A DNA stretch of 24,796 nucleotides, from positions 1 through 24,796 of IMG/VR virus record IMGVR_UViG_3300010165_000005; one strand, written 5' to 3'. Origin of the DNA: a virus (taxonomy: Duplodnaviria; Caudoviricetes). Below, piece by piece: positions 1,108-23,012 of the stretch (positions are counted from its first letter, which is position 1; the number at the start of each line of letters is the position of its first letter). Under the pieces are notes generated by a model. That model worked only from the letters and a program-made list of their open reading frames with translations, made no database searches and was not told where the DNA came from. Position numbers and translations under genes: made by a program.

Positions 1108-1143
1108 GGATTTACCTCTCCTTTTGCCTTCTTAACCTAAGAG

Positions 1144-1199: not shown

Positions 1200-1236
1200 G
1201 AATAGATACAAAATATTAGCAAAGGAGTATGATAAT

Positions 1237-1533: not shown

Positions 1534-1542
1534 GTCTAAGGA

Positions 1543-2255: not shown

Positions 2256-2594
2256 TGGGTAAAAAGGCGGAACAGATAGCAGGTATGGCAAGAGAAATGT
2301 TTGGTACAGAACAGATTACAGTGGAACAGCTTGCTTATATAACGGATATGTTAAAGCCTAGTACATACTTGTTAAAAAACCACCAAATTGATGGCAAGCC
2401 TATGACATTTATTGCTAAAGACCGTGCACATGCTATACAACACAGACCCTGGCAAATCGCAATAGTGAACGACCCGCACCCTAATATGGTGGTAATGAAG
2501 AGCCGTCAATTAGGGATTTCGGAATTAAATGTAGGTAAACTTTTACATTTTGTTGATACACATAGTTATGATGGCGTCCGGGCGTTATACGCTT
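2255..2594 (+). CDS. terL: terminase large subunit, exon 1
   Basis: HRPWQ motif and Walker A KSRQLGISE; ends TAC GCT T and joins TT CCC ACT of exon 2 to give ALYAFPTNDQM. Confidence 0.93.
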
Positions 2595-2640
2595 AGATGG
2601 GGAGAGCCTTTGTAGGGTAACCTACATTGAAAAACTCTAC

Positions 2641-2826
2641 TAAACGGGCATAGCAAAATAATAATCACAATAACAATATGCTGGTAAGAAAGACTAAGGG
2701 TGAGTGATTACACCTAGGGTTGACCTACCGTGCTAAATACGGTACATTATTCATTGTACTGTTAAAAGCCTAGAGACTAAATTTCTAGTTAGCTAACTAA
2801 ATGGAGTTAGTGAGAACTAGATAAAA
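2641..2826 (+). repeat. 186-bp exact direct repeat, copy 1 (intron core)
   Basis: Base-for-base identical to 5239-5424 by manual comparison. Confidence 0.95.
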
Positions 2827-2849
2827 GCTACTAAAGGAGGTGACAGTTT

Positions 2850-3767: not shown

Positions 3768-3850
3768 CGTAGAGCATCCTTAACCAAAACTAAGGATGAT
3801 GATATAGTCCAACCCTTAAAAATACTATGAAAATAAAGTGGAACACTAGG

Positions 3851-5190
3851 TTCCCACTAACGACCAGATGCAAATCTTTACTCAATCCAGGTTAGACCCT
3901 GTGTTGAATAAAGGCTATTATTCAACAATTATAAATCCAGATTTAAATTCGATGAAATTAAAGCAAATACGGAACAGTTTTATTTACTTCCGTTCGAGTT
4001 CTAAACCAGGGGCATTAGAAGGGCTTGCTAACGATTATTTAATCCTAGATGAATATGACCGTGTACCGCAAGCAGCAGAAGCTTCAGCCCTAGAAGGGAT
4101 GTCCTCATCTCCTTATAAGATAACAAATAGGTTTAGTACTCCAAGTATTAACGACGTAGGTATCCATAAGTTGTTTAAGCAATCGGACCAAAATTATTAC
4201 ATGCATAAATGTCCACATTGTAACTATTACAACAAGATGAGCTTTGAGCCTTATGTACCTGAAGCTCCAGTTGAAAAAAGAGGAAATGTTTTAACGGTTA
4301 ACCCTCAAGGGGTAGACTTATCTGCTAAGACAGTCGTAGATGGCTCTTTCCAATATGTTTGTCAAAAATGTGGGAGACCTCTAGACAGATGGATGACTGG
4401 TGAATGGGTTCCTATGTATCCTGATAGAGCTAAGAATAACCAAGGTACAAGAGGGTATTATATTTCACAAATGAATGCCGTTTGGATAAGTTTAGATGAC
4501 CTTAAACGAAAAGAACTAACTGCTGAATCTAAACAGTTGTTCTACAACTATGTTATCGGAGAGCCGTTTATCGATGCCAAAATGACGGTTAATAAATCAG
4601 ATATCATGAATCACATTAGACCTGACCTAAATAAGCAACCGGAAAATAGACAAGGATATGCCTTTGTATCCGTAGGAGTGGATTTCGGTAACCAACACTC
4701 CATAACTATTCATGGTGTTCGTTCTAATGGAGTTGTAGATATGATTGCTAACTTCCAAGTGACCAAAGCAAATCCTTTAAACCCCGACTCTATCGGAACA
4801 GACATTCAAGCATTAAGAGTTAAATTGGCTCCTTATGACCCAGACATCATTGTAGCCGATATAGGAGATTCAGGAGATAAAATTGCTAAATTAATCCAAA
4901 TCTATGGGAAAGGCAAAGTGTACGGGTGTATTTATCCGTCCACACCTAAGTCAAGCGGCAATGTTATCCCTACTTGGTCGGAAAACAATAATACTGTTCG
5001 TGCAGATAAATTAATGCAGAATAAAAGATATATTGCAAAATTAAAAGAAGGTGAAATTGGTTTTGCTAGAGGTATGGATAAATCCTTAGAAGATTTTGTT
5101 TCTCATTGGAGCAACGTTGTTATTCGTGATGAGGAAGACAACAAATCTATAACAGGATTTGTTCAAAAGATTACTCGAAAGGGACCCGAT
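3851..5190 (+). CDS. terL: terminase large subunit, exon 2
   Basis: Walker B YLILDEYDR, FSTP coupling motif, CPHC/CQKC, nuclease GVDFG; ends RKGPD. Confidence 0.93.
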
Positions 5191-5238
5191 TAAGTGATGG
5201 TCGGCTTTATAAGGTAACTTATAATGACAAAACAGTGT

Positions 5239-5424
5239 TAAACGGGCATAGCAAAATAATAATCACAATAACAATATGCTGGTAAGAAAGACTAAGGGTG
5301 AGTGATTACACCTAGGGTTGACCTACCGTGCTAAATACGGTACATTATTCATTGTACTGTTAAAAGCCTAGAGACTAAATTTCTAGTTAGCTAACTAAAT
5401 GGAGTTAGTGAGAACTAGATAAAA
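5239..5424 (+). repeat. 186-bp exact direct repeat, copy 2 (intron core)
   Basis: Identical to 2641-2826. Confidence 0.95.
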
Positions 5425-5461
5425 AGGTAAACTAATAATAAGTAATAAAGGAGGTGTAAAT

Positions 5462-5545
5462 ATAGAAATACCTTATACTGTGAGCAAATATGAGGACATA
5501 GAAAGAGTTATTCTAAAAGAAATAAAAAATATAGTTTACCTGTAA
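5462..5545 (+). pseudogene. C-terminal remnant of a deleted homing endonuclease gene
   Basis: AAAGGAGGTG RBS-like sequence then IEIPYTVSKYEDIERVILKEIKNIVYL*, in the same loop position as the intron 1 ORF and resembling its tail LVEISY... Confidence 0.6.
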
Positions 5546-5644
5546 AGCACTGAACCCTTAGCCAAAAGTAAGGGTTATGATATAGTCCAACTCGATTGCA
5601 AAAAAGCAATGTTAAAATATCACGAAAGTGACGATAGAAAAAAG

Positions 5645-5791
5645 CATTATGCCCAGGCAGCAATTTACTCAATGCTTGGTTATGAGTACCTTATGAATGT
5701 TTGGGATACAGATAAGTCAGCTCAATTTGATTCAGATTGGCTAAATGCTAACTTAACTCCTACCCAAACAGATATCTTTAGTCAATTCTAA
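5645..5791 (+). CDS. terL: terminase large subunit, exon 3
   Basis: HYAQAAIYSMLGY completes the nuclease DH motif; spliced total 1827 nt = 608 aa. Confidence 0.9.
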   Translation, partial: HYAQAAIYSMLGYEYLMNVWDTDKSAQFDSDWLNANLTPTQTDIFSQF

Positions 5792-5803
5792 TAAGCTAAA
5801 TTT

Positions 5804-5838
5804 AAGCCAGTTCTCTTTTTAGGGAATTGGCTTTTTTT
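5804..5838 (+). terminator. intrinsic terminator after terL
   Basis: AAGCCAGTTCTC / GGGAATTGGCTT stem followed by a T-run. Confidence 0.85.
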
Positions 5839-5848
5839 AATTTACTTG

Positions 5849-5877
5849 TTGACAAATAAACTTTAGTAGTGTAAGCT
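5849..5877 (+). promoter_or_regulatory. sigma-A-type promoter
   Basis: TTGACA-17-TAAGCT. Confidence 0.7.
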
Positions 5878-5910
5878 TAGCTCATAAGTTAAATAAAGGA
5901 GGAAAATTAA

Positions 5911-6222
5911 ATGAGTTGGTTAGATTCAATTCCTGAGATAAAAGAAATACCTAGTATACAATATAAAGCTACACAGAAAGCTTATGATAGGGCTAAAGGT
6001 AAAATAGAGTATAGAGTTACCGAGGAATTTATGAACTTAGAGTATGAGATAAGAGGGAATATAATAACCCCTACTGTTTTGTACAGTGAAATCATGCCAG
6101 GTAGCGATAAAATAGCTAAAAAAGCGATAGAAGATACCGCAACTGAGTTAAAGAATCATTTAGGATATAACGTAAAAGTAGAAGAAACAGCAATGGGTTT
6201 TGCCTTAACTATACATTGGTAA
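5911..6222 (+). CDS. hypothetical protein with a C-terminal GY-x-V...I-x-W motif
   Basis: AAAGGAGG RBS; ends LGYNVKVEETAMGFALTIHW. Confidence 0.8.
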   Translation: MSWLDSIPEIKEIPSIQYKATQKAYDRAKGKIEYRVTEEFMNLEYEIRGNIITPTVLYSEIMPGSDKIAKKAIEDTATELKNHLGYNVKVEETAMGFALTIHW

Positions 6223-6242
6223 AATACAAAGGAGGGATAATA

Positions 6243-6803
6243 GTGAAATTTTGGAATAGTATAAAAGAACTGGTAAAACCGGAGACAGTATATTCTGACC
6301 CTGAATATATAAGGGAAGATGTGAAAATGGGAGAAGTAGAAAAAACTAGTGAACAAAAAGGAGAAGAGGATACAGAAATGAAAAAAGAAAGTAATAAGAT
6401 TTCTCCTGAAGAAGCTAAGGAACAAGCAGACGAGTATAACGAAAAAGCTTTTCAAGATTGTTTGCAAAAAGCCTACGAAAATATTCGTAGTAGCGCTTAA
6501 CATGGAGCTACTCTAGCAATATTAGGTAGTTCGAATGGTATAGGTAGTCTATTCGATAACTATTATGATCACAATACAATAGAAAAAGTTGGAAGAAAGT
6601 TATCTGAAGAAGGCTATGATATAGAAATACAAGATAATTACGGTAATCCATGCCGAATTCCTGGTTCTCCAAGAATGGTAATATACATCAGTTTTGACAA
6701 TTCCATAGGAAAGTTTGTTATAAGAGATGTAGCTAAAGAAATTAAGAAAGCAGAAGAAGAGGACGGTAAAGTTGTTGCTGAAGGGGAGACTGACATAGAG
6801 TGA
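6243..6803 (+). pseudogene. hypothetical gene interrupted by an in-frame TAA at 6498-6500
   Basis: GGAGG RBS with GTG at 6243; the frame stays open 100 codons past the TAA and ends in a GTGA overlap with the next gene. Confidence 0.75.
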
Positions 6804-7399
6804 CAGACTATATTACTTCAGATACTCATTTTGATCATAATAATATTTGCGGTCCAAATGGATTTACTGAAACCAGGAAACATTTTCAATCAACTGAAGA
6901 AATGAATAAAACAATTATTAAAAATTGGAATGCTGTTGTAACAAATAAAGACAGAGTTTATCATTGTGGTGATTTTAGCTTAGGGGCTAAGCCTGAAAGA
7001 GCAATTGAGTTAATAAAGCAATTGAATGGGAAAATTGTTTTGATTAAAGGAAACCATGACTCACATAGGTTTTTAAATAAAATAAAGAAAGACTCAGAGT
7101 TAAGTAAAAGAGTAACGATTTATGATGTGGGGGTAAAGATTAAGCTAAACGGAAAAGTTCTCTACTTAACACATTACCCATTTATTGTAGGGAATAAAGA
7201 GAACTTATTTAATTTCCATGGGCATATTCATGAAGAAAAAATGGATTACGATAATGTTATTAACATTGGCGTAGATAGTCCTGAAATAAGTGGAATTCCC
7301 TCTAATAAAAATAAGGAACATCAAAAATTTGGAGAACCCATAGAGTTAGAGAACTTTTTAGAATTCAAGTCAAACATTATTAAGGTTAACTTAATTTAG
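6800..7399 (+). CDS. calcineurin-like metallophosphoesterase
   Basis: SDTH, HCGD, GNHD, THYP and HGHIH motifs. Confidence 0.92.
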   Translation: MTDYITSDTHFDHNNICGPNGFTETRKHFQSTEEMNKTIIKNWNAVVTNKDRVYHCGDFSLGAKPERAIELIKQLNGKIVLIKGNHDSHRFLNKIKKDSELSKRVTIYDVGVKIKLNGKVLYLTHYPFIVGNKENLFNFHGHIHEEKMDYDNVINIGVDSPEISGIPSNKNKEHQKFGEPIELENFLEFKSNIIKVNLI

Positions 7400-7492
7400 A
7401 CAGAAGTCGCTCATCCTCTATAGGTGGGTGATGAATGCCGTTCGGTATGAGGGTTACCGTTGGTAACTCGAAAACTGACAATCAAGGCATGT

Positions 7493-7521
7493 TGACTTTT
7501 TATTTTGCTCTATGTTATAAT
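7493..7521 (+). promoter_or_regulatory. IS internal promoter
   Basis: TTGACT-17-TATAAT with an extended TG. Confidence 0.7.
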
Positions 7522-7551
7522 CAGTCTATATAAGAAATGAGTTGATATAAC

Positions 7552-7670
7552 ATGGTATTAGATACAAATAATCATTCAGTTCTAAAAGTTTCTGTCTTTT
7601 GACTACTGGTGGCGCACCGATTGACGTTATAAAGAAATATATTCAGAATCAAGGGAATAATCATAAATAG
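7552..7670 (+). pseudogene. tnpA: internally deleted Y1 transposase
   Basis: N-terminal MVLDTNNHSV joined out of frame to C-terminal SKSFCLLTTGGAPIDVIKKYIQNQG; HUH core missing. Confidence 0.88.
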
Positions 7671-7677
7671 AAAGTAG

Positions 7678-8829
7678 ATGAGTCTTATGGAGCGACTAAA
7701 AGCATACAAATTCAGATTATATCCAACAGAAGAACAAGAAATTTTCTTTTCTAAGTCTTTTGGTTGTGTTCGTAAAGTTTATAATTTGATGTTAGATGAA
7801 CGCACCAAGGCGTATCAACAGTACAAATCAGACACGTCAAAACAAACTAAGTTACCGACACCTGCCAAGTACAAAAAAGACTATCCATTCTTAAAAGAAG
7901 TAGACAGTCTAGCTTTAGCCAATGCCCAGCAACATTTAGATAAAGCATACAAGAATTTCTTTCGGGATAAATCCATTGGATTTCCTCGTTTCAAGAGTAA
8001 GAAAAATCCTGTTCAGAGTTATACAACGAATAATCAAAATGGGACAGTTGCTTTGATTGATAATAGATTTATCAAAGTTCCTAAACTAAAATCCTTAATC
8101 AAAATTAAACTTCATAGACAGCCTAAAGGGATTATCAAATCTGCTACAATATCACGTCATTCTAGTGGTAAATACTATGTTTCTCTGTTATGCAAAGAAG
8201 AAGTTAACGAATTACCTAAGATGAAGTCTTCGATTGGTATTGACTTGGGTATTACTGACTTTGCAATTCTTTCTGACGGACAAAAAATTGATAATAATAA
8301 ATTCACGTCCAAAATGGAAAAGAAACTAAAACGTGAGCAACGCAAGTTATCTAGACGTGCATTATTAGCCAAACAGAAAGGTATCAATTTGTTTGAAGCT
8401 AAAAACTATCAAAAACAAAAACGAAAAGTAGCACGGTTACATGAAAAAGTAATGAATCAACGTACTGATTTTCTGAATAAGTTGAGTACGGAAATTATCA
8501 AAAACCACGATATTATCTGTATTGAAGACTTAAACATAAAAGGTATGTTGTGTAATCATAAATTAGCAAAAAGTATTTCTGATGTGTCTTGGTCTAGTTT
8601 TGTAACTAAATTACAATACAAGGCTGACTGGTATGGACGTGAAATTATCAAGGTAGATAAATGGTTTCCTTCTAGCCAAATTTGTTCAGAACGCGGACAC
8701 AAAGATGGTAAGAAATCTCTTGATATTCGAGAATGGACTTGCCCTATTTGTCATACTCAACACGACCGAGACATCAACGCTAGTATAAATATTTTGACCG
8801 ATGGTCTACGAATACAAGCATTGGCTTAG
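7678..8829 (+). CDS. tnpB: RNA-guided endonuclease TnpB
   Basis: KAYKFRLYPT N-terminus; RuvC GIDLG / IEDL / DRDINA; Zn ribbon CSERG..CPIC with one Cys lost; start may be ATG 7687. Confidence 0.95.
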   Translation: MSLMERLKAYKFRLYPTEEQEIFFSKSFGCVRKVYNLMLDERTKAYQQYKSDTSKQTKLPTPAKYKKDYPFLKEVDSLALANAQQHLDKAYKNFFRDKSIGFPRFKSKKNPVQSYTTNNQNGTVALIDNRFIKVPKLKSLIKIKLHRQPKGIIKSATISRHSSGKYYVSLLCKEEVNELPKMKSSIGIDLGITDFAILSDGQKIDNNKFTSKMEKKLKREQRKLSRRALLAKQKGINLFEAKNYQKQKRKVARLHEKVMNQRTDFLNKLSTEIIKNHDIICIEDLNIKGMLCNHKLAKSISDVSWSSFVTKLQYKADWYGREIIKVDKWFPSSQICSERGHKDGKKSLDIREWTCPICHTQHDRDINASINILTDGLRIQALA

Positions 8830-8840
8830 AAAGTATCAAG

Positions 8841-8986
8841 AACCGTAGGAACTACGGGGATAGCTTGGTAAATAAGAGACACCGCTGTGAGCAAAGAAAT
8901 ACGCTTGCAAGTACGCTCTATTCCCAAGAAGCTCCCACTTCAAGCGTTAAGAACCGTAAGGTTTAGCTAAGTGGTGAGTAGTTCAC
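8841..8986 (+). ncRNA. TnpB omegaRNA (reRNA) scaffold / IS right end
   Basis: CCGTAG/CTACGG hairpin, CTTGG..CCAAG pairing and terminal hairpin; predicted guide is the flank AAAGTTATTGACAAGA... Confidence 0.8.
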
Positions 8987-8993
8987 AAAGTTA

Positions 8994-9021
8994 TTGACAA
9001 GAATTGTAAATATGTTATAAT
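8994..9021 (+). promoter_or_regulatory. sigma-A-type promoter of the tRNA cluster
   Basis: TTGACA-16-TATAAT with an extended TG. Confidence 0.8.
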
Positions 9022-9150
9022 AAACATGTAAGTAAAATAAAAAATTAAACTTTAGATGACTTATCTTTACTTACATCTTTTGTAAACGTACTGAGTAGGA
9101 AGATTCTGCCTTACCTTCCTACTCAAATATATAAAAAGGTAGTGAGTGAA

Positions 9151-9321
9151 ATGTCTACAAGAGACGAATTAATAAAGAAAGCTGAAGCTGACCAAGAAGC
9201 ATTTATAAAAGAGTATAATAAGCTAAAAGAAGAAGAAGAAGCTAAAAAACAGGACGACCTTGAGGTTAAAAAAGCTATATTAAGTAATAAGGATGATAAA
9301 TTCGCTAGTGAAGAAGATTAG
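9151..9321 (+). CDS. small charged protein (56 aa, MSTRDELIKKAEADQEAF...)
   Basis: Manually translated open ORF below the 60-aa track cutoff; AAAGGTAGTGAG upstream. Confidence 0.65.
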   Translation: MSTRDELIKKAEADQEAFIKEYNKLKEEEEAKKQDDLEVKKAILSNKDDKFASEED

Positions 9322-9367
9322 GCAATACCCCGTAAAGAGATACATTAGATAGAGTTACATAATTTCT

Positions 9368-9439
9368 AAGCCAATAGTTTAATCAGAAAAACATAGGTCT
9401 CCAAAACCTAAGAACAGGGAGCATAACCTTGTTGGCTTG
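9368..9439 (+). tRNA. tRNA-Trp (CCA), atypical T-loop
   Basis: AAGCCAA/TTGGCTT acceptor; TAGGT-CTCCAAA-ACCTA anticodon arm; CAGGG-AGCATAA-CCTTG T arm; no encoded 3' CCA. Confidence 0.85.
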
Positions 9440-9443
9440 TTAT

Positions 9444-9516
9444 TGAGATATAGTTCAGTTGGTAGAACGCTTGTCTGTTAAACAAGAAGTCACAGGTTCG
9501 AGTCCTGTTATCTCAG
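9444..9516 (+). tRNA. tRNA-Asn (GTT)
   Basis: Canonical cloverleaf: TGAGATA/TATCTCA, GTTC/GAAC, CTTGT-CTGTTAA-ACAAG, ACAGG-TTCGAGT-CCTGT. Confidence 0.95.
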
Positions 9517-9519
9517 TTT

Positions 9520-9602
9520 GGGAAAGTAGCCAAGATAAGACAAAGGCGGCGGACTGTAAATCCGTTCTTTCGGGTTCGTAGGTGCAAATCCTTCCTTTCC
9601 CA
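9520..9602 (+). tRNA. tRNA-Tyr (GTA)
   Basis: GGGAAAG/CTTTCCC acceptor; GCGGA-CTGTAAA-TCCGT; long variable arm; T-loop TGCAAAT. Confidence 0.92.
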
Positions 9603-9612
9603 TAACATTAAG

Positions 9613-9821
9613 TTGGGCTTATCAGGAGTGCGATAAGTTGCCTGAAGCAGGCTTTGTAAGCTGTCTTAGATAAATTTAAGAGGTTACACTGACCTCTATA
9701 AATATAGGAGTTTCTAAGTTAAATGCGTAGGACTCGGAGCTAGTCGCATAGCTTCCGCACTCAATACATAAAGCCAATCCCTCTACACCTTTCAAAGGAC
9801 AGTCATGTACTGACGTAGAGG
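9613..9821 (+). ncRNA. candidate structured ncRNA(s) of unknown family
   Basis: GC-enriched, no long ORF, many nested helices and a possible pseudoknot (see findings). Confidence 0.5.
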
Positions 9822-9923
9822 TTTTACATAAAATATATTGCTCTTGGAATAGCCTATTTTTTTTTATTCTTAAGTAAATTTACACCTAGAGGGTTTGACT
9901 CCCTCATATCCCTTTTACGGGAA

Positions 9924-9997
9924 GCTCTAGTTGAGTACTAATGACACGCCATGGCAACTTGGTCATTAGTAGACAGGTGCAAATCCTGTAGCAGAGC
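9924..9997 (+). ncRNA. tRNA-like RNA lacking a D arm
   Basis: Closing stem GCTCT(A)GTT/AGCAGAGC, 10-bp stem TACTAATGAC/GTCATTAGTA, T arm ACAGG-TGCAAAT-CCTGT. Confidence 0.6.
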
Positions 9998-10134
9998 GCT
10001 TGTTATTCTAGTTAACAAGAAAAGCCTCCCTTCCCATTAGAATTAAGTGAAACTTTTCGAAGTTTTAGTGGAGTATACCCACAGGCGTCTTCCTCTACAG
10101 AGAAGTAACTAGTTATATTGAGAGGAGGGAGCCT

Positions 10135-10503
10135 ATGAAAACAGTTGGAGAGATTAATCGAGATATAAGAGAACTAAAAGCTGAAGGCGGTCATGCAGAT
10201 AGCATATCAGATAAGTGGCACACTTTTGGTGAGCTATATTTCCATAGGGCTGTTCTCTTTTCGGTTATTCTAAATTCAAATAAGTCTATTTCTTGGAAGT
10301 CTTGGAAACACCACGATGGCACCATGTTTGATGATTCGTTTATTGTAGGTATTAATACACCTAAAGGACAGTATACTTACCATTATGGTCCAGAGCTTTG
10401 GGATTTATTTGATGTACCTGAGTTGGAGTATGCTCCTGAATATGATGGGCATGTCCCTGATGATGTTACTCGTTTGTTGTCCTTGAATTTTCCTATGATG
10501 TAA
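10135..10503 (+). CDS. conserved phage protein (WDGH-domain-like)
   Basis: SDKWHTFGELYFHR...WKSWKHHDG...QYTYH...YDGH pattern; GGAGG RBS. Confidence 0.75.
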   Translation: MKTVGEINRDIRELKAEGGHADSISDKWHTFGELYFHRAVLFSVILNSNKSISWKSWKHHDGTMFDDSFIVGINTPKGQYTYHYGPELWDLFDVPELEYAPEYDGHVPDDVTRLLSLNFPMM

Positions 10504-10507
10504 TATT

Positions 10508-10538
10508 TTAGCTATCTATTAGGTAGCTAATTTTATTT
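10508..10538 (+). terminator. intrinsic terminator
   Basis: TTAGCTATCT/AGGTAGCTAA stem followed by T-rich sequence. Confidence 0.7.
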
Positions 10539-10548
10539 CATTAAAGTG

Positions 10549-10577
10549 TTGACATTGGATAAAAAGCATGATAAGAT
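10549..10577 (+). promoter_or_regulatory. sigma-A-type promoter
   Basis: TTGACA-17-TAAGAT with an extended TG. Confidence 0.75.
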
Positions 10578-10613
10578 AAGTATAGAAAGTTAGAGGGAGG
10601 AGAAAACAATAAA

Positions 10614-10823
10614 ATGGCAATCCAAGGAAAAGAACTAGAATTTAAACAAGCTAGACGAGATAAACATATGTCGCTAACAGATTTAGCTAAGGTATTAAAG
10701 GTGGACAAAAGTGCAGTGTCTTACTGGGAACGAGGCTTACGTTATCCTAGAAAAGAATACCACAAAAAAATAGAAAACTACTTAGGTAAACCTGTTTCAG
10801 AACTTATGCAAGAAAAAGAATAA
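10614..10823 (+). CDS. XRE/Cro-family helix-turn-helix regulator
   Basis: MSLTDLAKVLKVDKSAVSYWERGLRYP. Confidence 0.92.
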   Translation: MAIQGKELEFKQARRDKHMSLTDLAKVLKVDKSAVSYWERGLRYPRKEYHKKIENYLGKPVSELMQEKE

Positions 10824-10862
10824 AGTGCTAAAATTTTTAGCAATTTATTTTTAAAGTAAAGG

Positions 10863-10891
10863 TTGACAAACAAAAATTTATTTAGTAAAAT
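10863..10891 (+). promoter_or_regulatory. sigma-A-type promoter
   Basis: TTGACA-17-TAAAAT; the ORF-track TTG start at 10863 is this -35 box. Confidence 0.75.
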
Positions 10892-10922
10892 ATACTTAAT
10901 AAATAAAGAGGAGATGGAAAGT

Positions 10923-11255
10923 ATGTACAAGGAGAATTACACAACAAAAACTTTATCAAAATCAGAGGAAAAACTAACAAGAGATATTGAAGAACTAGAA
11001 TCAATCAAAACTTCTTTAGAAACCCTAAAAGCAAGAGAGAAAGCCCTAAAAGAAAATATTTTTAATCATATGGGTGACCTAGACTTAGGATATTATGAGA
11101 CAAGTAATTATGAGTATAATATTGTTCGAAATGCACAAAGAAACCAAGTAGATAGTAAAAAGTTAAAGAACCAGTTTCCGAATGTGTTTAAAACAGTTAG
11201 TAGTTTAAAGGATATAAAACCTTACATTCAAGTAAAGAAAGTTAAAAAAGACTAA
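10923..11255 (+). CDS. coiled-coil hypothetical protein; may extend to 11322 if the A6 run at 11244 carries an extra A
   Basis: GAGGAG RBS with ATG 10923; VDSKKLKNQFP motif as in phage YqaJ-tail/Gp157-like proteins. Confidence 0.7.
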   Translation: MYKENYTTKTLSKSEEKLTRDIEELESIKTSLETLKAREKALKENIFNHMGDLDLGYYETSNYEYNIVRNAQRNQVDSKKLKNQFPNVFKTVSSLKDIKPYIQVKKVKKD

Positions 11256-11343
11256 GGGTAAAGAAATTAAAGAGAAAATGATGGAAGAAAACGTTTGTAA
11301 AACTACAGATGAATTTGACTAAAGGTAAAGGAGTAAACTCGAA

Positions 11344-11586
11344 ATGAGGAAATATAGACTATTAGTTCGAACAAAACACCCTATGCAAATAGATGAGGAA
11401 ACAGGAGCATATGCAAAAGTTGTTTCTTTCCCACTTACTGATGAACCTCAAATAGAAGCTATTATGGAAGAAAATAATGAAAATTCTCACTGGTTTAAAT
11501 TAGAAAGTGCAGAAAAAACAATGTACTTAGCAAAAGATGACATTGTAAATATCATAGAGGTGGAGGTAAATACAAATGGCGGTTAG
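11344..11586 (+). CDS. hypothetical protein
   Basis: AAAGGAG RBS; open 80 aa ORF. Confidence 0.75.
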   Translation: MRKYRLLVRTKHPMQIDEETGAYAKVVSFPLTDEPQIEAIMEENNENSHWFKLESAEKTMYLAKDDIVNIIEVEVNTNGG

Positions 11587-11986
11587 AGTAGATTTGAAAG
11601 TTAGAAAGAATGAGGATAATGGTGACTTTGAAAAAGCTCTAAGTGAATTTTGTAAAAAGTACTCCGAAGAAAATGATTGTGCAATTGAGTTTGATACTCA
11701 AGACCATAGAGATGTACAGTTCTTTTGGTGGGAAGAGGCTATTTACAAGGATACCATATCAAGTGGATATGTAACTCATCAGTTAAAGAAAATGGAAAAA
11801 GAAGACCAAGAGGCTTATAGAAGATATCAAGACATCTATAGTCAGGTAGCAAAGCAAACGTTTAGTAAGGTTGTTGGACTAGAAGCAGTAATTCAGACAG
11901 TAGGCTATCGAGCTGAAACTTACAAAGACCCTGTATCTTTACCAGCACTTAAATTATTATATGAAGAAGTTACAAGAAGGTATTAA
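11576..11986 (+). CDS. hypothetical protein
   Basis: GGAGGT RBS; overlaps the upstream gene. Confidence 0.75.
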   Translation: MAVRVDLKVRKNEDNGDFEKALSEFCKKYSEENDCAIEFDTQDHRDVQFFWWEEAIYKDTISSGYVTHQLKKMEKEDQEAYRRYQDIYSQVAKQTFSKVVGLEAVIQTVGYRAETYKDPVSLPALKLLYEEVTRRY

Positions 11987-12062
11987 TTTAAAACATTCTT
12001 AATAAATAATAAAAAGCTTACTTTCCAGTAGGGATTTTAATAAATAGATATTGACAAATACC

Positions 12063-12119
12063 TTGATTTTTTACTATATGTTGTGTATAATAATAATTAG
12101 TCACCCCAATATATGGGAT
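12063..12119 (+). promoter_or_regulatory. nrdH promoter with tandem NrdR-like boxes
   Basis: TTGATT-17-TATAAT; box 1 TTACTATATGTTGTGT (12071-12086) and box 2 CCCCAATATATGGGAT (12104-12119) versus consensus acaCwAtATaTwGtgt. Confidence 0.7.
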
Positions 12120-12149
12120 AATAAATTATACATAAGGAGCTAGAAAATC

Positions 12150-12389
12150 ATGAGTATAACCGTATTTTCAAAACAAAATTGCATGCAATGCAAAATGACA
12201 AAAAGACAGCTAGAGGCTAAAGGTATTCCGTTTGAGGAGAAGAATACAGACGATAACCCAGAGGTTTTAGAACAATTACGTGAAGAAGGTTTTGGTTCAC
12301 TTCCTGTTGTTAAAGCTGGAGAAGAATCTTGGACAGGATTCCAACCGCCTAAAATTGCACATTTAGCCGAACTTGTTCAATCAGCATAA
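12150..12389 (+). CDS. nrdH: glutaredoxin-like protein NrdH
   Basis: VFSKQNCMQCKMTK, SLPVV and WTGFQP are NrdH signatures. Confidence 0.95.
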   Translation: MSITVFSKQNCMQCKMTKRQLEAKGIPFEEKNTDDNPEVLEQLREEGFGSLPVVKAGEESWTGFQPPKIAHLAELVQSA

Positions 12390-12398
12390 TTCATTTTT

Positions 12399-12425
12399 AT
12401 CCTACTTTCGAGTAGGATTTTTTTT
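12399..12425 (+). terminator. intrinsic terminator
   Basis: ATCCTACT-TTCG-AGTAGGAT followed by a T-run. Confidence 0.9.
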
Positions 12426-12436
12426 AATAGAAGGTG

Positions 12437-12465
12437 TTGACAAAAGTTGTTTAAAATACTATAAT
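12437..12465 (+). promoter_or_regulatory. consensus sigma-A promoter
   Basis: TTGACA-17-TATAAT. Confidence 0.85.
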
Positions 12466-12492
12466 AACAAATATAGAAAGGGGGTAAGTTTA

Positions 12493-13272
12493 TTGCCTAA
12501 AAAGAAAAAGAAGAAACAAAGCCAACCCAAAGAAATTCCTAAACAAAAACCTCGTAAATATATAGATGCACATTTTAAACATAGTGATGTAAAGTACGCT
12601 GTAGAATTTTACCAAAAGCAAATTAGACGGATGTTAACAAATTTAGAAGAGATTGGAGTGTATACGGAAATAGTTTATTTTTCAAAGTCAAGTGAATCTG
12701 TTTATGTTGCTTTTACTTTGTCCCCAGAGGCACAGAGAGCCGTGGGAGTATCCGAGAAAATATATATGGGACAATTCGTAATCTCTAGCCATAAACGCTA
12801 CTACACAATGAATGTGCGCACCTTTTATTTACAAGATGTTTCTAGCGCAGATGAATTTGAAAACTACTTAAGAGGAAAGATAAAAGAGTTAATTAGCCAA
12901 GAAGTGAGACCTCAAAGTTTTCTTTGTTCTCTAACTAAAAAAGAATTAGATTGTTTAAGAGTTATTGGTAAATCTTTACGAACAGGCACTTATTTAGAGC
13001 TAGACCCTAATCAAATAGAGGACCCTTTGTTTGACGTTTGTTTTCGAACAAAAACAAGAGCTTTATTAGCAGTAACTCGAGAAGAAAAAACAAGTCAAAT
13101 GATAGGGAACTTACAGTATAAGGGTTGCTTACAAGTTGTAGATAATGCGGTTGGTTATCGTTTAGGTCTAAGTCTAAGTAATACAGGTAAAGCCCTACTA
13201 GGTACTTATGGCGCAGATATAGAATCAAGCGCTTGGATTAAATATTTAGATACAAGGTCTTTAGATTTGTAA
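12493..13272 (+). CDS. hypothetical protein with a Lys-rich N-terminus
   Basis: Start reassigned to TTG 12493 after GAAAGGGGG, because the track start lies upstream of a terminator and promoter. Confidence 0.75.
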   Translation: MPKKKKKKQSQPKEIPKQKPRKYIDAHFKHSDVKYAVEFYQKQIRRMLTNLEEIGVYTEIVYFSKSSESVYVAFTLSPEAQRAVGVSEKIYMGQFVISSHKRYYTMNVRTFYLQDVSSADEFENYLRGKIKELISQEVRPQSFLCSLTKKELDCLRVIGKSLRTGTYLELDPNQIEDPLFDVCFRTKTRALLAVTREEKTSQMIGNLQYKGCLQVVDNAVGYRLGLSLSNTGKALLGTYGADIESSAWIKYLDTRSLDL

Positions 13273-13301
13273 AAAAGTTTTATAAAAGTTAAGAGAAACG
13301 G

Positions 13302-13330
13302 TTGACAAAGATGCTGTAATAGAGTAAAAT
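13302..13330 (+). promoter_or_regulatory. sigma-A-type promoter
   Basis: TTGACA-17-TAAAAT. Confidence 0.75.
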
Positions 13331-13358
13331 AAAGGTATTAATTTGAAAGGGGATAACA

Positions 13359-13886
13359 ATGAAAACATTAGAAGAAAGATTAGGTGGGCACTCCTTAAGA
13401 GAGGTAGACACTAGTAGCTTATTTAACTTATTAAGGTACACAATAAAAAGCAAAAGAAAGGCAGAAACTAATTTAAGTTTTATTACCCAAAAGGACGGTT
13501 TTAAAGACTACTGTAAACCAATAGTTCAACAAATTTCTTTGGTTTTATTAAAATATCCATTTTTAGGATTTGTTATCACTAGTATAGTTCACATTTTTAT
13601 TCGCTGGTATTGGGTGCAAATCGTAGTGGACATTTTCTATTGGTTATTCTTAGGAGTTTTAGCTTTTGTTGGACTATTATGGATTGGGTACTTTTTTGTT
13701 AAAAAAGTTATCCATGGTGTCCAAAGCTCAGATAAAGGGTTGCAAGCAAAAGAAGAATTTGAAGCAGGCGTTAATCAAGCAGAAAAAGAAATACAATCTG
13801 TAAGAAATGAACTGTACGCTAGGGGAGTTAAAAAGGAAAATGTGATAAAACTTGAAACGTTATATGATGAATATGATAATGTGTAA
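13359..13886 (+). CDS. membrane protein (about 2 central TM helices)
   Basis: Hydrophobic centre with charged helical flanks; GAAAGGGG RBS. Confidence 0.8.
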   Translation: MKTLEERLGGHSLREVDTSSLFNLLRYTIKSKRKAETNLSFITQKDGFKDYCKPIVQQISLVLLKYPFLGFVITSIVHIFIRWYWVQIVVDIFYWLFLGVLAFVGLLWIGYFFVKKVIHGVQSSDKGLQAKEEFEAGVNQAEKEIQSVRNELYARGVKKENVIKLETLYDEYDNV

Positions 13887-13906
13887 AGGAGATTTTTTAT
13901 CATTAT

Positions 13907-14107
13907 GGTCAAAGAATACTCACACTTCTAAAGTGTGAGATGAATTTGACAAAACACATAAACCATAGGGACTATGGGGATAGCTTGGTAAATAAAAGAA
14001 GTCAATGAACCAGTTGTAACCCAACTGTTTTAAACATGCTTTGTTCCCAAGAATCTGACACTTCTAAACGTTAAATCGAAGATTTAGTGTAAGTGTTGGC
14101 AGTTCAA
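13907..14107 (+). mobile_element. 201-bp minimal IS200/IS605 derivative (left end plus omegaRNA scaffold, no ORF)
   Basis: Preceded by TTAT; left-end hairpin CTCACACTT/AAGTGTGAG-ATGAA; 13961-14107 homologous to 8841-8986; ends TCAA; removal restores RBS...ATG TCA AGG ATT AAC ATG. Confidence 0.88.
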
Positions 14108-14120
14108 GTCAAGGATTAAC

Positions 14121-14429
14121 ATGCAGGTAGAAGATTACCGAATAAAATCAGATGAATTTCAACTAATTGTTACAAAGATTCGAAGAGATGAAAAAGGGAA
14201 TATCCGCAAGTCGAAAAAGCGTAATGGAGAAGGAGAAGAGGATAGTGTTTCTCTTGTTGGATACTACGGGAATATGAGAAAAGCTATGAGTGGTATTGCA
14301 AAAGATTATCTGACAACTGAAAGTTATGACAAAAAAGAAATCACAACCATCAAAGAATATCAAGAAGAACTTGATTTTATTATAGAAGAATTTTATCAAC
14401 AAAGTGATTTAGAAGAACCTTTCAATTAG
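14121..14429 (+). CDS. hypothetical phage protein (DUF5405-like); original start split by the mini-IS
   Basis: YRIKSDEFQLIV...VGYYGN pattern. Confidence 0.7.
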   Translation: MQVEDYRIKSDEFQLIVTKIRRDEKGNIRKSKKRNGEGEEDSVSLVGYYGNMRKAMSGIAKDYLTTESYDKKEITTIKEYQEELDFIIEEFYQQSDLEEPFN

Positions 14430-14438
14430 GGGAAAACA

Positions 14439-14602
14439 ATGGGCGATAAATCGGAAAAACAAAAATTTTTAAGTGACTTACTCGAATGTATACGAGAAGG
14501 AAAGAAATTTTATATGAGAGTGAAGAATTTGTTTTTACTAAAAAGGTAAGACAGAAATTCTTTTCAGATAATAAAAATAACATCGAGGTGACACAATGGT
14601 AA
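14439..14602 (+). pseudogene. small ORF with a probable 2-nt duplication frameshift
   Basis: MGDKSEKQKF...KKFY; removing one AT of TATATG near 14511 continues ESEEFVFTKKVRQKFF...TQW* into the next start. Confidence 0.45.
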
Positions 14603-14820
14603 CAGGAAAATTTAAGGCAAAAATGAAAGGTTCATTTGATATTAATGATAAAAACATTGATTGGTTAAAAGATTGGGTAGACGATAAAGGATACATTTAC
14701 GGTTACTACGTAGATGGATACATTGTAGGAAACATCGATGAAGTAACAACAGAAGATTTTTGTGTGAATTGGTGGATTCCAGTTGAAACGGAAACTTTAG
14801 AGGCGTGGGAGGGTAAATAA
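14596..14820 (+). CDS. YopX-like small phage protein
   Basis: KFKAK...IYGYYV...IPVETETL resembles the YopX N-terminal region. Confidence 0.55.
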   Translation: MVTGKFKAKMKGSFDINDKNIDWLKDWVDDKGYIYGYYVDGYIVGNIDEVTTEDFCVNWWIPVETETLEAWEGK

Positions 14821-15405
14821 ATGAGAACAGATAAGAATTTAAAAAACCCTTTTGACCCAAACTTAACTCACGAAGAATTTAGTATTGCTGCTAAATGGTG
14901 GAATGAACAAGTAGACAAATTTGAGGAGAAAAAGAAAAAAGAAATTCAAGCAGGAACTTACGCTCCTGTAGATAAAGAAGACAAGAGAATGTTTGAAGCG
15001 AATGAAAAGCTTATTGAAATAGATAAAGAGCATGAATATAATGGTATAACTTTAGGCAAAGAATATTACGTCTTAAAATTCGGTAGTGGTGTGCATGATA
15101 AATATTATGTAGATAAAGTAATTATTCGTTATCGAGACGATTCGAAAGGAAAACCTTTATACTTTACAGGGCATGACTATAAAGCTTACTTTCCTTATGA
15201 AATTTGTAGCACAAAACAAGATGCAAAAGACATTATTGAAATAGCTACAAAAGCGACCAAAAATCCATCGCCTATAGGAAATATTTATCACTACTATGAT
15301 GAGTTTAAAGAAAAAGAAGGTCTCAGTGAATCAGAGCTTGCCTCTTATTATGTACAAATGGCAAAAGTCAACAAATGGAATAAGGAGGCTAAAGGTGAAT
15401 CATAG
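14821..15405 (+). CDS. hypothetical protein
   Basis: GGGAGGG RBS; 194 aa open ORF. Confidence 0.8.
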   Translation: MRTDKNLKNPFDPNLTHEEFSIAAKWWNEQVDKFEEKKKKEIQAGTYAPVDKEDKRMFEANEKLIEIDKEHEYNGITLGKEYYVLKFGSGVHDKYYVDKVIIRYRDDSKGKPLYFTGHDYKAYFPYEICSTKQDAKDIIEIATKATKNPSPIGNIYHYYDEFKEKEGLSESELASYYVQMAKVNKWNKEAKGES

Positions 15406-17709: not shown

Positions 17710-18174
17710 ATGAAATCATATGAGGCATTGTATCTAACAGGAGAAATACTAGAGGAACTAATGGATGAAATAGAGGAATATAGAGAAGATGGTATAGATT
17801 TAGAATCTGGTATGGAAGAAAGAGCAAGGGCCCTAAGAGAAGTGTTGCAAATGGCTAAGAAGTTTGATGACAGAAATAGAGAAGAAGACAGGAACAGAGA
17901 TAGATTCATGTATACAGATAAGTATGGAACTACTATGAATCTTGAAGAAACTCAATCAGAAGAACTACTATCTAAGTTTATTCTAGGTAGCCAAGGTATT
18001 GAAATAAATCCAGCTCTCATTGGTTGCTTTGTAAATAGAGGATCAGGAGAACTGGAAGACGTAGAGGAAATGGTTGACCAAAGAGATTTTGAAACTCTAT
18101 ATGATGTCTTCAATGAGGAAAAAATAAAAGAATACATGTTTTACACCATAGTAAAAGATGAGGGGGACAAGTAA
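17710..18174 (+). CDS. acidic hypothetical protein
   Basis: AAGGAG RBS; open ORF. Confidence 0.75.
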   Translation: MKSYEALYLTGEILEELMDEIEEYREDGIDLESGMEERARALREVLQMAKKFDDRNREEDRNRDRFMYTDKYGTTMNLEETQSEELLSKFILGSQGIEINPALIGCFVNRGSGELEDVEEMVDQRDFETLYDVFNEEKIKEYMFYTIVKDEGDK

Positions 18175-18175
18175 A

Positions 18176-18323
18176 GTGTTAAGAGATGAATTTAAAGAAC
18201 TTAACGCAATGCCTAATCTGTGGACGAGAAGTTATTTTGTTTCAACTGCAGGTAATGTATCGAGTGAAACAATTAAACAATTAAACAATTAAACAATATG
18301 TAGAAAATCAAAGGAAGAGGTGA
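18176..18323 (+). pseudogene. tnpA: C-terminal fragment of a Y1 transposase with an 8-bp repeat expansion
   Basis: LRDEF..LWTRSYFVSTAGNVSSETIKQ then YVENQ in another frame; about 4 copies of AAACAATT at 18267-18297. Confidence 0.88.
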
Positions 18324-19405
18324 GAGAAGTGAGACAAGCCATGACAGTAAAAGTAAAACTTGAACCAAACAAAGCGCAATTGGAATTAATTAAGTCATCT
18401 TCACAAGCATATATTAATGCTATTAATACATTGGTAGACGAAATGGTTAAAGCACAGGCGCCCACTCAGAAAACAACTAAGCACATTGATGTACCTTTAA
18501 ATAGTAGCGTTAAAAATCAAGTGATTAGAGATGCTAAATCAGTGTTTAAGAAAGCTAAGAAGATTGAGTATAAAAAGGTACCCATTTTAAAGAAACCTAT
18601 TATTGTATGGAATAATCAAAACTATACGATTCATCATGCAAGCATAAAAGTGCCGTTTATTGTTGGTGGTAAGTCACAAAAAATTGAGATTAAAGCTCTC
18701 ATTTCAGACTATGAAAGAAACTTAATTGAATCAGCAAGCAAGTTAGGAACGTTGCGCATCACTCGAAAAGGCACTAAGTATGTAGCACAAATTGCCATTG
18801 AAACGGATGTGAAAGAACAAATAAATACAAAAGTAATGGGTATTGACTTAGGTATTAAGATACCTGCGGTGTGCTGTACAGATGAAAACAAAATAAAGTT
18901 TGTAGGTAATGGAAGAGAAAACAAATACATTAGACGAAAACACAATAGTAGGCGTAAGAAACTAGGTAAAGCCAAAAAATTAAAGGCTATCAAAAAGTCA
19001 CAGAATAAGGAACAACGTTGGATGAATGATAAAGACCACAAGATAAGTCGTGAAATAATCGACTTTGCTATTCAACACAATGTAGGAATAATTAGATTAG
19101 AGCAATTAGCGAATATTAGAAAACAGACAAGTAAAAGTCGTAAAAACAACCACTCATTAAGTAACTGGTCATTCTATAGATTGGCACAGTACATTGAGTA
19201 CAAAGCAAATTTAGTAGGTATTAAAGTAGAATATGTAGACCCTAAATACACAAGCCAACAATGTCCTAAATGTGCTGAAAGAAACAAAGCAAAAGATAGA
19301 CAGTACAAATGTTCTAACTGTGGTCACACAGACCATAGAGATATAGTCGGTGCTAAAAATATTATTCACGCACCTGTACTTGATGGTCATAGTCAAGTAG
19401 CCTAG
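18320..19405 (+). CDS. tnpB: RNA-guided endonuclease TnpB (second, divergent)
   Basis: RuvC GIDLG / RLEQL / HRDIVGAKNI; CPKC..CSNC Zn ribbon intact; start may be 18329 or 18341. Confidence 0.93.
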   Translation: MREVRQAMTVKVKLEPNKAQLELIKSSSQAYINAINTLVDEMVKAQAPTQKTTKHIDVPLNSSVKNQVIRDAKSVFKKAKKIEYKKVPILKKPIIVWNNQNYTIHHASIKVPFIVGGKSQKIEIKALISDYERNLIESASKLGTLRITRKGTKYVAQIAIETDVKEQINTKVMGIDLGIKIPAVCCTDENKIKFVGNGRENKYIRRKHNSRRKKLGKAKKLKAIKKSQNKEQRWMNDKDHKISREIIDFAIQHNVGIIRLEQLANIRKQTSKSRKNNHSLSNWSFYRLAQYIEYKANLVGIKVEYVDPKYTSQQCPKCAERNKAKDRQYKCSNCGHTDHRDIVGAKNIIHAPVLDGHSQVA

Positions 19406-19533
19406 TTAACTATAAGTTCTGAACTAGGATGGGGTATTGGCATACCCCTTATCTTTAGGCAAGTACAAACTAGAAATAGATGCGTACGGTTTTGTACTAA
19501 AGAATCCCATTGCTTTAGCTGTGGGAGTGTCAA
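19406..19533 (+). ncRNA. omegaRNA scaffold / right end of the second tnpB element
   Basis: Hairpins CCTAGTT/AACTAGG and GGGGTAT/ATACCCC plus the terminal hairpin; the 5' end probably overlaps the tnpB 3' end. Confidence 0.7.
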
Positions 19534-20762: not shown

Positions 20763-23012
20763 ATGAAAGTAATGTATGTAACCGTAGGTGCGCCAGGATC
20801 TGGTAAGACCCACTTGGTAGATAATTCAGCGCTAAAAGAACTAGATAATATCCACTCCGACCGAGTAAGAGACTTGGTTGAGGGGTTTACTACAAAAGCT
20901 ACCAATGAAACAGGGGAAACTTTTAAGACTCACGATACTCGATTTGAGAAAAAGACTTGGTCGATTATTTGGGATTTAATTGAGCAACGAATGCAGGAGG
21001 GTAAAACTTTCTGCTTTGACTCCACGTTCTTGTCTAAGAAAAGTTTCTCAACATTAAAGAAACTAAGAGAAAAATATGGTTATCGAGTGTATGTTTTAGA
21101 CTTTACAGAGATGCCAATCGGTACTCTTGTCAGAAATAACAAGAGTGAAGAAAGAAAAGAAAATCATGCTGTTGTACCTGACAATGTAGTCATAGATATG
21201 CATGAACGAGCAATGAACACTCACTTTCCTTCTTGGGTAAATGTCATTGATTGTTCTGATAAAGAAGAAGCAAAAGCAGAAATTAAAAACTCCCTTATGT
21301 GGTTACACTCAGACGTAAACGAATATAACCAAGTAAAAATCATTGGGGATATACATGGTTCTGCTTCTGTCTTAGAAGAAAATGTTCTAAATGATGTAGA
21401 CCCAAGTACACTTTACATTTTATTAGGAGACTACTTAGACCGAGGAACAGAGAACGCCCGAACCTTTAAGCTACTTTATGAGCATTTGAATGATTCGAAC
21501 TTTGTGTTCTTAAGAGGAAATCATGACAAGCACCTAGAACGCTTTGTCCAAGGTCGAGATGTCCCTAATAAAGGAACGAAAGAGGAAACTATTCCGGCTT
21601 TATTAGAAGCGGGTGTTACCAAAAAAGACATCAAACGATTTACTAAAAAATTGCAAGATGTTTATATGTTCGACTTCAGAGGGCAAACCTATGTATGTAC
21701 CCATGCAGGGTTAACCGAAGAGGACAGTATGAATTTAACTGATGATTTTGGGGTAGACATTGACCAGTCTAACTTTGTGGATGGTGTAGGAAAGTACGAC
21801 TTTGACGTTGACTATTGGTACAATGATATAGCTAGTTATTTTTCTAATTCTACTATTCAATTCCATGGGCATAGAAACGCTTTTGATGTGGATATCGATG
21901 AATATGAAACTATCTACAACCTAGAACAAAAGGTTGAACGTGGAGGTCACTTAGCTGTAGCGACAATTGATGATAGAGGAGTTCATACTCATCTGCATAA
22001 GAATGACAATTTTGACATCCGTTACTTAGAATCAGACTTATCTACAGATATTTCTAAACTGGATAACAAGGATATTAAGTCTATCCTTGACCATTCTACA
22101 AATGTTATCACTAAAGAAGTAGAAGATAACCTCTATGCAAATAACTTTACCCGAAAAGTATTTTCTAAAGGAAACTTTAACAACTTTTCTATTCAAGCTC
22201 GTGGACTATTTACGAATGACGAAGGGGATGTTAAAGCTCGTGGATTTAAAAAGTTCTTTAACTTGAACCAAGTATCTGAAACTGAAGAACAAGAAGTGTT
22301 GAAACATCCTTTACCAGCTAGAGTTTCTGAAAAAATAGATGGTTTTCTAGTTATCCTTACAGGAATTGATGGAGAACTTAAAGTATTGTCCAAAGGTGGA
22401 GATAAGAAATTTGGCAAAGAAGCTCGACGAATCCTTAAGAATAATGCTAGTAAAACAGAAGAAGAGCTAGCCTACTATTTGGAAAGTAACAATTTGTCCG
22501 TTACCTGTGAAGTTGTCTCTCACAAGGATTCTCATGTTATTGAGTACCCTGAGGAGAATATCTATGTACTAGATGCGATTTACAATGAGTACACAGAGGA
22601 CGCAAATTTTGAAGTAGCTAAAGAGTTTTCGACATATTCTGGATTAGCAATGCCTAGATACCAATATGTGGACAACAAAGAAGAACTTAAGTTATTTATT
22701 GAAAAGGAAAAGAATAACATGAGTCCTCATTTTGAAGGCTCAGTCCTTACTTTTGCTGATGGATTTCGAGTGAAGATTAAAACTCGTCACTACTTCCAGA
22801 TGAAGTTCCTTTTAAATGAGATTGGGAAGAAAAGAAAATTTTCTGATTATGTGTTTTATAATGGTAGAGATTACGTGTCTGAAAATGAAGCTTCCAAAAT
22901 AAATAAAATTCTTCAAAGAGTTCATTTTGGGGACGACTACAAGAAAACTAAAATGGGATTTGAAGATAATAAAGCTACAAAGGAAAGGTATGGTATAAAA
23001 GATGTTTGGTAA
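20763..23012 (+). CDS. trifunctional RNA-repair enzyme: polynucleotide kinase, metallophosphoesterase and RNA ligase (Pnkp/Rnl1-like)
   Basis: P-loop GAPGSGKT; GDIHG, LGDYLDRG, RGNHD, THAG, HGH; ligase KIDG, TCEVV, EGSV, RVKIK. Confidence 0.92.
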   Translation: MKVMYVTVGAPGSGKTHLVDNSALKELDNIHSDRVRDLVEGFTTKATNETGETFKTHDTRFEKKTWSIIWDLIEQRMQEGKTFCFDSTFLSKKSFSTLKKLREKYGYRVYVLDFTEMPIGTLVRNNKSEERKENHAVVPDNVVIDMHERAMNTHFPSWVNVIDCSDKEEAKAEIKNSLMWLHSDVNEYNQVKIIGDIHGSASVLEENVLNDVDPSTLYILLGDYLDRGTENARTFKLLYEHLNDSNFVFLRGNHDKHLERFVQGRDVPNKGTKEETIPALLEAGVTKKDIKRFTKKLQDVYMFDFRGQTYVCTHAGLTEEDSMNLTDDFGVDIDQSNFVDGVGKYDFDVDYWYNDIASYFSNSTIQFHGHRNAFDVDIDEYETIYNLEQKVERGGHLAVATIDDRGVHTHLHKNDNFDIRYLESDLSTDISKLDNKDIKSILDHSTNVITKEVEDNLYANNFTRKVFSKGNFNNFSIQARGLFTNDEGDVKARGFKKFFNLNQVSETEEQEVLKHPLPARVSEKIDGFLVILTGIDGELKVLSKGGDKKFGKEARRILKNNASKTEEELAYYLESNNLSVTCEVVSHKDSHVIEYPEENIYVLDAIYNEYTEDANFEVAKEFSTYSGLAMPRYQYVDNKEELKLFIEKEKNNMSPHFEGSVLTFADGFRVKIKTRHYFQMKFLLNEIGKKRKFSDYVFYNGRDYVSENEASKINKILQRVHFGDDYKKTKMGFEDNKATKERYGIKDVW

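Follow-up and report, generated by a model that had tools for sequence, protein, structure and literature searches.

The 24,796-nucleotide stretch of phage DNA analysed here (the window) carries, at positions 13901 to 14107 of its plus strand, on which the gene that it interrupts and the two tnpB elements also lie, a 207-bp mini-element of the IS605 family that contains no protein gene, is missing from exactly this site in sister phages and has a second copy at another locus. Our preferred reading, which we consider probable, is that this element has moved among TTAT sites as the likely deletion product of a larger parent and with the help of a TnpA acting in trans, and that it would cut only its own empty site if the TnpB of the parent loads its RNA. 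The window covers part of a large phage whose terminase is ~67% identical to those of Enterococcus phages such as phiSHEF13 and EFDG1, which belong to the Herelleviridae, and the stretch is present in 20 listed runs from 9 studies, for the most part metagenomes of plants and food fermentations.

Public contigs from 8 sequencing runs (X1, X2, X3, X4, X6, X7, X15 and X19) were aligned to the window. In contigs from X3 and X6 the alignment passes from 13900 directly to 14108, skipping exactly 207 bases (ends CA..AA) with 0 shared letters at the joint, and a contig from X2 makes the same skip, covering 13457-13900 with 2 differences and 14108-15182 with 0. These empty-site joints place the left end at 13901 and revise the initial annotation, which had the element span 201 bp from 13907 to 14107; a copy at another locus (contig L003, below) shares the six extra bases, CATTAT. 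The tetranucleotide TTAT had been named as the TAM, but the copy chosen was the second one (13903-13906), whereas the one used as target lies at 13897-13900, outside the element, and is the predicted TAM (TTTAT with 13896). The right end at 14107 and the predicted guide GTCAAGGATTAACATG (14108-14123) are both confirmed by the joint, which resumes at 14108; this guide is derived from the flank, being phage gene sequence outside the element, and is present in the empty allele. An assembly artefact or chance fusion as the source of the element is given next to no credence here, since the two public contigs that break inside it do so as expected from a repeat, contigs from X1 span the junction between right end and right flank (14068-14531) as well as the interior, and precise empty sites are seen in independent studies.

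With the left boundary set to 13901, the putative left-end DNA guide AATA (13915-13918), predicted to pair with TTAT under the pairing rule known from IS608, falls at +15 to +18, and its spacing thereby matches that of the TnpB1 element of the window (TTAA|7390, guide AAGT) and that of a plasmid element, L141; other left ends of the family have much the same guide arrangement, 13-14 nt past the tetranucleotide. The guide is followed by a subterminal hairpin, CTCACACTT-CTA-AAGTGTGAG (13919-13939; predicted fold -11.5 kcal/mol, z -3.96 as ssDNA), which is enclosed by a GGTCAA/TTGAC stem (13907-13950), then by a linker (13951-13962) and by a predicted omegaRNA scaffold (13963-14107) consisting of a 5' hairpin, a long stem closed by CTTGG/CCAAG and the right-end hairpin. 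Within the scaffold are the right-end DNA guide GAAT (14051-14054), assigned from its covariation with the end tetranucleotide, and the right cleavage tetranucleotide TCAA (14104-14107). Insertion 3' of a fixed tetranucleotide TTAT, here, in L003 and at joints 14513, 16112 and ~9867, together with the left guide AATA, places the element in IS200/IS605. Coding sequence is absent, as had been claimed: no ORF of at least 60 aa overlaps the 207 bp, and there is no transposase. Palindromes are present near both ends, the ends themselves (CATTATGG.. and ..CAGTTCAA) are not complementary, so there are no terminal inverted repeats, and the clean 207-base skip leaves no target-site duplication. Non-coding, with subterminal palindromes, free of duplication and mobile, the element has each of the PATE features tested, by the definition given in passages of PMC3119063.

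The exact empty allele was found in 3 of the 8 runs (X2, X3 and X6), in X2 within a phage that differs from the window by 2 letters over ~1,500 bases. A second empty allele, in which ATGTATGC replaces 13895-14109, is present in four runs (X6, X7, X15 and X19); it retains the start codon of the interrupted gene, lacks the TTAT at the cut and is altered at guide position 2, and could be either an escape from cleavage or simply ancestral. X1 shows the filled right junction, and in X4 the flanks lie outside coverage. In a scan of viral contigs, the first 119 bases of the element end two contigs of one dataset, of which L001 corresponds to window positions 1-14019, and L003 has these bases, identical, at another locus, 3' of a holin-like gene. 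The L003 contig encodes genes of phage replication (recA, polymerase, primase and helicase), and because its RecA also finds its best matches among Enterococcus phages, it and the window probably represent the same phage. Further joints with element ends were seen at 14513 (as an insert of 221 letters in X15 and as joints in X3 and in X6), 16112 (X19), ~9867 (X7 and X15), close to 6829 (X7) and immediately before 8987 (X15); TTAT precedes the first three in the window, and the left-end joints fit the mini-element or a full parent alike. The empty alleles, the second copy in L003 and the further TTAT sites bear out the mobility that had been proposed; of the further copies and the parent IS for which a search had been suggested, a second copy was found and the parent was not.

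Three joints have more complex arrangements. The one in X4 from 14108 to 13896 reads as a right end, ~16 bases, TTTAT and the next left end, i.e. a tandem, short array-like configuration. That in X6 from 13960 to 13897 has a left end apparently nested at TTAT inside a parent-like left part, with coverage comparable to that of a phage strain. In X15, a joint from 14107 to 8987 puts the right end of the mini-element one base from the TnpB1 element end in the window, so that two different elements are found at a nearly identical phage site.

The insertion falls inside an ATG and therefore cuts a phage gene (13899-14429) off from its RBS and start, leaving AT at 13899-13900 and G at 14108. In the empty site, the frame begins MSRINMQVED and is preceded on its 5' side by AAGGAG; the sole homolog found for the split gene, a protein of 107 aa, starts MPRINMQVED. 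A shorter, 102-aa form of the protein may still be made from a second ATG at 14121. Viral contigs searched with a flanking gene as bait contained no relatives.

The mini-element is likely to be what an internal deletion left of a third element, one that carried tnpB between the same ends, as suggested by contig ends of at most 30 letters, on which the parent is reconstructed. In X3, X4 and X6, contigs diverge from the window past 13960, the approximate position of the deletion junction within the linker, where the left end continues into TTCAGTGTT and an RBS-like AAAAG(A/G)GGTGATA; a contig from X3 joins the window before 13960 out of a stretch that contains a stop codon. On the other side of the junction, a loose end before the scaffold in X15 translates as GLRMRNLKLN, which resembles the C terminus of a TnpB, and one in X3 has TAA six bases 5' of the scaffold. 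Short ends akin to these also occur in X4, X6 and X19, parent-like ends being present in 5 of the 8 runs.

The parent itself was not found in phages, plasmids or viral contigs, and metagenome contigs gave 6 distant matches; nor was it found in samples of the class Bacilli (401 genomes), of an order (401) and of a family (134), with mostly 2-6 candidates scored per genome, or among the best 120 of 3,520 TnpB proteins ranked by C terminus. Neither a cognate tnpB nor an intact tnpA is present in the window, G001 and G002, which together make up ~1/3 of the phage. A pattern of the left end fused to the scaffold gave 3 matches in viral contigs, 2 of them real and one (L002) due to chance, and 58 in GTDB genomes, none of which was mini-like by BLAST and which were read as chance. 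The closest whole element found is L141, an IS200/IS605 tnpB element on the Mammaliicoccus sciuri plasmid NZ_CP065961.1, whose ends are laid out in the same way, with TTAT and GAAT..TCAA, and whose TnpB (WP_150821901.1) is intact and 57% identical to TnpB1; with identities to the mini-element of 76.5% in the scaffold and 63% in the left end, it is too distant to be the parent. Within L141 (2501-2967) a second copy of the tnpB 3' end plus scaffold lies 312 bases from the first, so that there are two right ends, each with its own guide.

Two other tnpB elements lie within the window. The first (7390-8986), related to the mini-element but non-parental, is inserted after TTAA and consists of a tnpA remnant, an intact tnpB1 (7678-8829) and a scaffold (8843-8986); the protein is full length with RuvC motifs and an IS200_TnpB match above the cut-off. 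Its ends are seen in a joint at 7389 in X15 and in loose ends at 7386 and 8986 in X7/X19, and X7 has 286 extra bases at 7580, corresponding to a longer tnpA region. The second element (18171-19533) is unrelated, with a C-terminal tnpA remnant, tnpB2 (18320-19405) and a different scaffold ending TCAA at 19533; TnpB2 shares 26% protein identity with TnpB1, and the mini scaffold is 49% identical to this scaffold vs 47 +/- 2% for shuffled sequence. The view of the initial annotation that the mini-element is too diverged to be a recent deletion of the TnpB1 (7.4-kb) element holds, and descent from that element is ruled out, as identity is 55% between the left ends and 70% between the scaffolds and the sites are TTAT vs TTAA. 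Of the two tnpA remnants (7550-7670 and 18171-18320), the first is without the 286 bases at 7580 relative to X7, and the second is missing its 5' portion together with the left end and contains an 8-base unit in three repeats. The stop codon of the phosphoesterase ORF upstream of the TnpB1 element (6800-7399) lies inside the left end of that element (7390-7399).

The mini scaffold is homologous to that of TnpB1, as had been recognised, with 70% identity over 13961-14107, all four motifs named earlier in common and a similar predicted fold, and it has been retained whole. It can be aligned over its full length with 24 family scaffolds (those left of 41 once near-duplicates were removed), most of them 3' of tnpB, and is by this comparison a complete scaffold. 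In the resulting alignment of 25 rows, both partners have changed in 9 of the 21 predicted pairs, and the proposed covariation of the right-end pair is upheld, with 4/4 GAAT rows ending TCAA, 20/20 GAAG rows ending TCAC and one GAAA row ending TCAC. These compensatory changes validate the predicted scaffold itself. The change between CCATAG/CTATGG and CCGTAG/CTACGG is indeed present, but it separates TnpB-bearing elements as well and is not a sign of selection on the mini-element; more generally, because the changes mark lineages of mostly TnpB-bearing elements, covariation is uninformative on selection after the deletion. Four common scaffold variants in the runs, whose carrier may be the mini-element or the parent alike, leave the predicted energy about unchanged (-33.4 to -34.4 kcal/mol). 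Rfam RF02841 (Ref70, Enterococcus sRNA 70) matches both scaffolds (8837-8968 and 13957-14076) weakly, the higher score being 34.8 and the lower 30.3 bits, values that lie far below its gathering score of 115 and make them non-members; the Ref70 family may itself be a TnpB omegaRNA.

The likeness to the TnpB1 scaffold, with the fold kept, and the presence of a full-length TnpB1 with RuvC motifs would be expected if the element were a domesticated guide cassette that loads the phage's own TnpB1 or TnpB2 and so forms a dispersed multi-guide weapon against other DNA, copies at different flanks then meaning different guides. This we regard as very improbable. The TnpB1 element follows TTAA rather than TTAT, and TnpB TAMs are described as little degenerate in passages of PMC10278001, while the TnpB2 scaffold, at the level of shuffled sequence, is unrelated; neither TnpB of the window thus looks like a fitting partner, contrary to what had been suggested. 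The notion of a multi-guide system serving the phage also finds no support in the targets, as the guides are plain phage flanks at the landing site and no other match to TTAT plus guide with up to 5 mismatches occurs in the window or G002. Moreover, the site is empty in 6 of the 8 runs, a near-identical phage included, and the insertion breaks a start codon.

Viral contigs were scanned three times by the right-end hairpin alone, giving 66 matches, with L229 left out as a duplicate. Six lineages without genes but with a left end nearby were obtained (L189; L202; L205/L210; L216/L221; L219; L224/L227/L228), and the 5' scaffold hairpin is kept in all six, two of the lineages being related and some ends, among them the left ends of the L227/L228 family, having been assigned by eye. 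Their left-end tails stand 15 to 190 bases before the scaffold, compared with 23 in the mini-element and 1,235-1,412 in full elements, and breakpoints have no fixed place at the scaffold edge. Relics without a left end (L190, L252 and L199/L201) are cut inside the scaffold. Random deletions are expected to strike the 58-89-base 5' scaffold part ~5% of the time (~1/20), and given this expectation, the ends assigned by eye and the two related lineages, the 0/6 deletions inside this part are only suggestive as a sign of selection. The deletion junction of the mini-element, 3 bases 5' of the first scaffold hairpin, provides a natural 5' limit for scaffolds of this family.

Among these gene-less elements, up to 2 contigs (L228 being one) have two copies each, and no TnpB1-like gene is present in four records with other mini-elements, three of which are small fragments and one of which is rated 100% complete. 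L150 and L239 have in common a similar long non-coding stretch ~250 bases upstream of a TnpB-type scaffold; both are gene-less, and the stretch is unlike a plain left end.

The variable distance between tail and scaffold is also what would be seen if the mini-element were a passive hitchhiker, that is a mobile PATE whose scaffold is the 3' leftover of one deletion, which spreads by virtue of its shortness and TnpA-recognised ends and whose RNA is neither made nor used. The retention of the scaffold may indeed be an accident of one deletion, and no selection since that event is needed to explain it, since the contigs suggest near-identity to the scaffold of the parent. Terminal-only PATEs of 52 bp exist, as reported in passages of PMC3119063, and no internal promoter-like site was seen in the element, promoter matches in the region being at chance (5 vs 4.3 +/- 2.0). 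The 6/6 lineages that keep the 5' hairpin, the relics cut inside the scaffold where no left end remains and the position of the junction here speak against such an origin, the first two weakly in view of the random chance of ~5%. On balance, we see the hitchhiker as possible but not likely.

We prefer to view the element as one that moves in trans and whose RNA would still be put to use. A TnpA borrowed in trans would move it by peel-and-paste, and its RNA would come from transcription that starts at a phage promoter upstream and reads through the element, and would be trimmed by TnpB, which is known to process the omegaRNA 5' end (PMC10278001). Were the TnpB of the parent to load this RNA, it would cut the empty site, and repair would then restore the filled copy; loading of a TnpB in trans is plausible and has been put forward in print. 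Because the guide is the DNA beyond the right end and the TAM precedes the left end, as set out by Meers et al. (PMC10055086), TAM and guide coexist only at the empty site. The consequence would be either retention after excision or homing into the empty alleles of co-infecting sister phages, and homing between co-infecting phages or plasmids is a mode listed in a review (PMC13565253). Parent-like ends and the exact empty allele are found together in X3 and X6, so any homing is not sweeping. These features fit an element that serves itself and not the phage.

A bolder version of this scheme, in which the element would be a protein-free homing element of lytic phages that borrows TnpA and the TnpB of the parent, converts co-infecting empty alleles, has kept its scaffold for that reason and has selected escape alleles, appears to us unlikely. 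The escape allele would in that case be the one with ATGTATGC seen in 4 of the 8 runs.

An omegaRNA-encoding PATE is of a kind already described and mobilised experimentally. In the passages of Meers et al. that concern it (PMC10055086), protein-less IS605 elements are reported, TnpA excises omegaRNA-only substrates, and PATEs are said often to encode omegaRNAs, with use of TnpB in trans as a proposal. Like the Geobacillus stearothermophilus PATE-like elements of that study, the mini-element has no protein gene, has IS605 ends with a covarying guide and TAM/TEM, and keeps its omegaRNA; for the Geobacillus elements, again as far as those passages go, the action of TnpA in trans was shown and that of TnpB proposed. 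Unlike them, it resides in a large Enterococcus-phage-related phage, belongs to another IS lineage (TTAT, GAAT..TCAA) and is known from sequence alone, and it adds the occurrence of filled, empty and TAM-less alleles in populations. With the Haloquadratum walsbyi PATEs of Dyall-Smith et al. (passages of PMC3119063) it shares subterminal palindromes, the absence of terminal inverted repeats and of target duplication, a non-coding nature and an IS605-type internal deletion; some of those PATEs are terminal-only, 52 bp long and derived by repeat-mediated deletion, whereas the mini-element keeps ~145 scaffold bases. It also resembles the standalone omegaRNAs of OMEGA systems (Altae-Tran et al., passages of PMC10691335), mobilised guide-RNA loci without effector or transposase, which are described as functioning in trans when a compatible effector is present, whereas the omegaRNA here is predicted from the DNA. 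A phage-specific account of such elements beyond Meers et al. was not found in the literature searched, figures, supplements and subscription papers aside, and 10.1101/2025.02.20.638934 was without relevant terms. What the phage offers is a test case: its population contains the filled, the empty and the TAM-less state of a single site, and these alleles would allow a direct test of whether a TnpB produced elsewhere improves the inheritance of an omegaRNA-only PATE, the step proposed by Meers et al. (PMC10055086).

Elsewhere in the window, the terminase gene is interrupted twice by 196-base stretches (2631-2826 and 5229-5424) that are 98% identical to each other, the first being followed by a zinc-finger-rich nuclease-like ORF (2850-3767); these interruptions are probably group I introns with a homing endonuclease. 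Three tRNA genes are located at 9368-9602, and a fused kinase/phosphoesterase/RNA ligase gene lies at 20763-23012.
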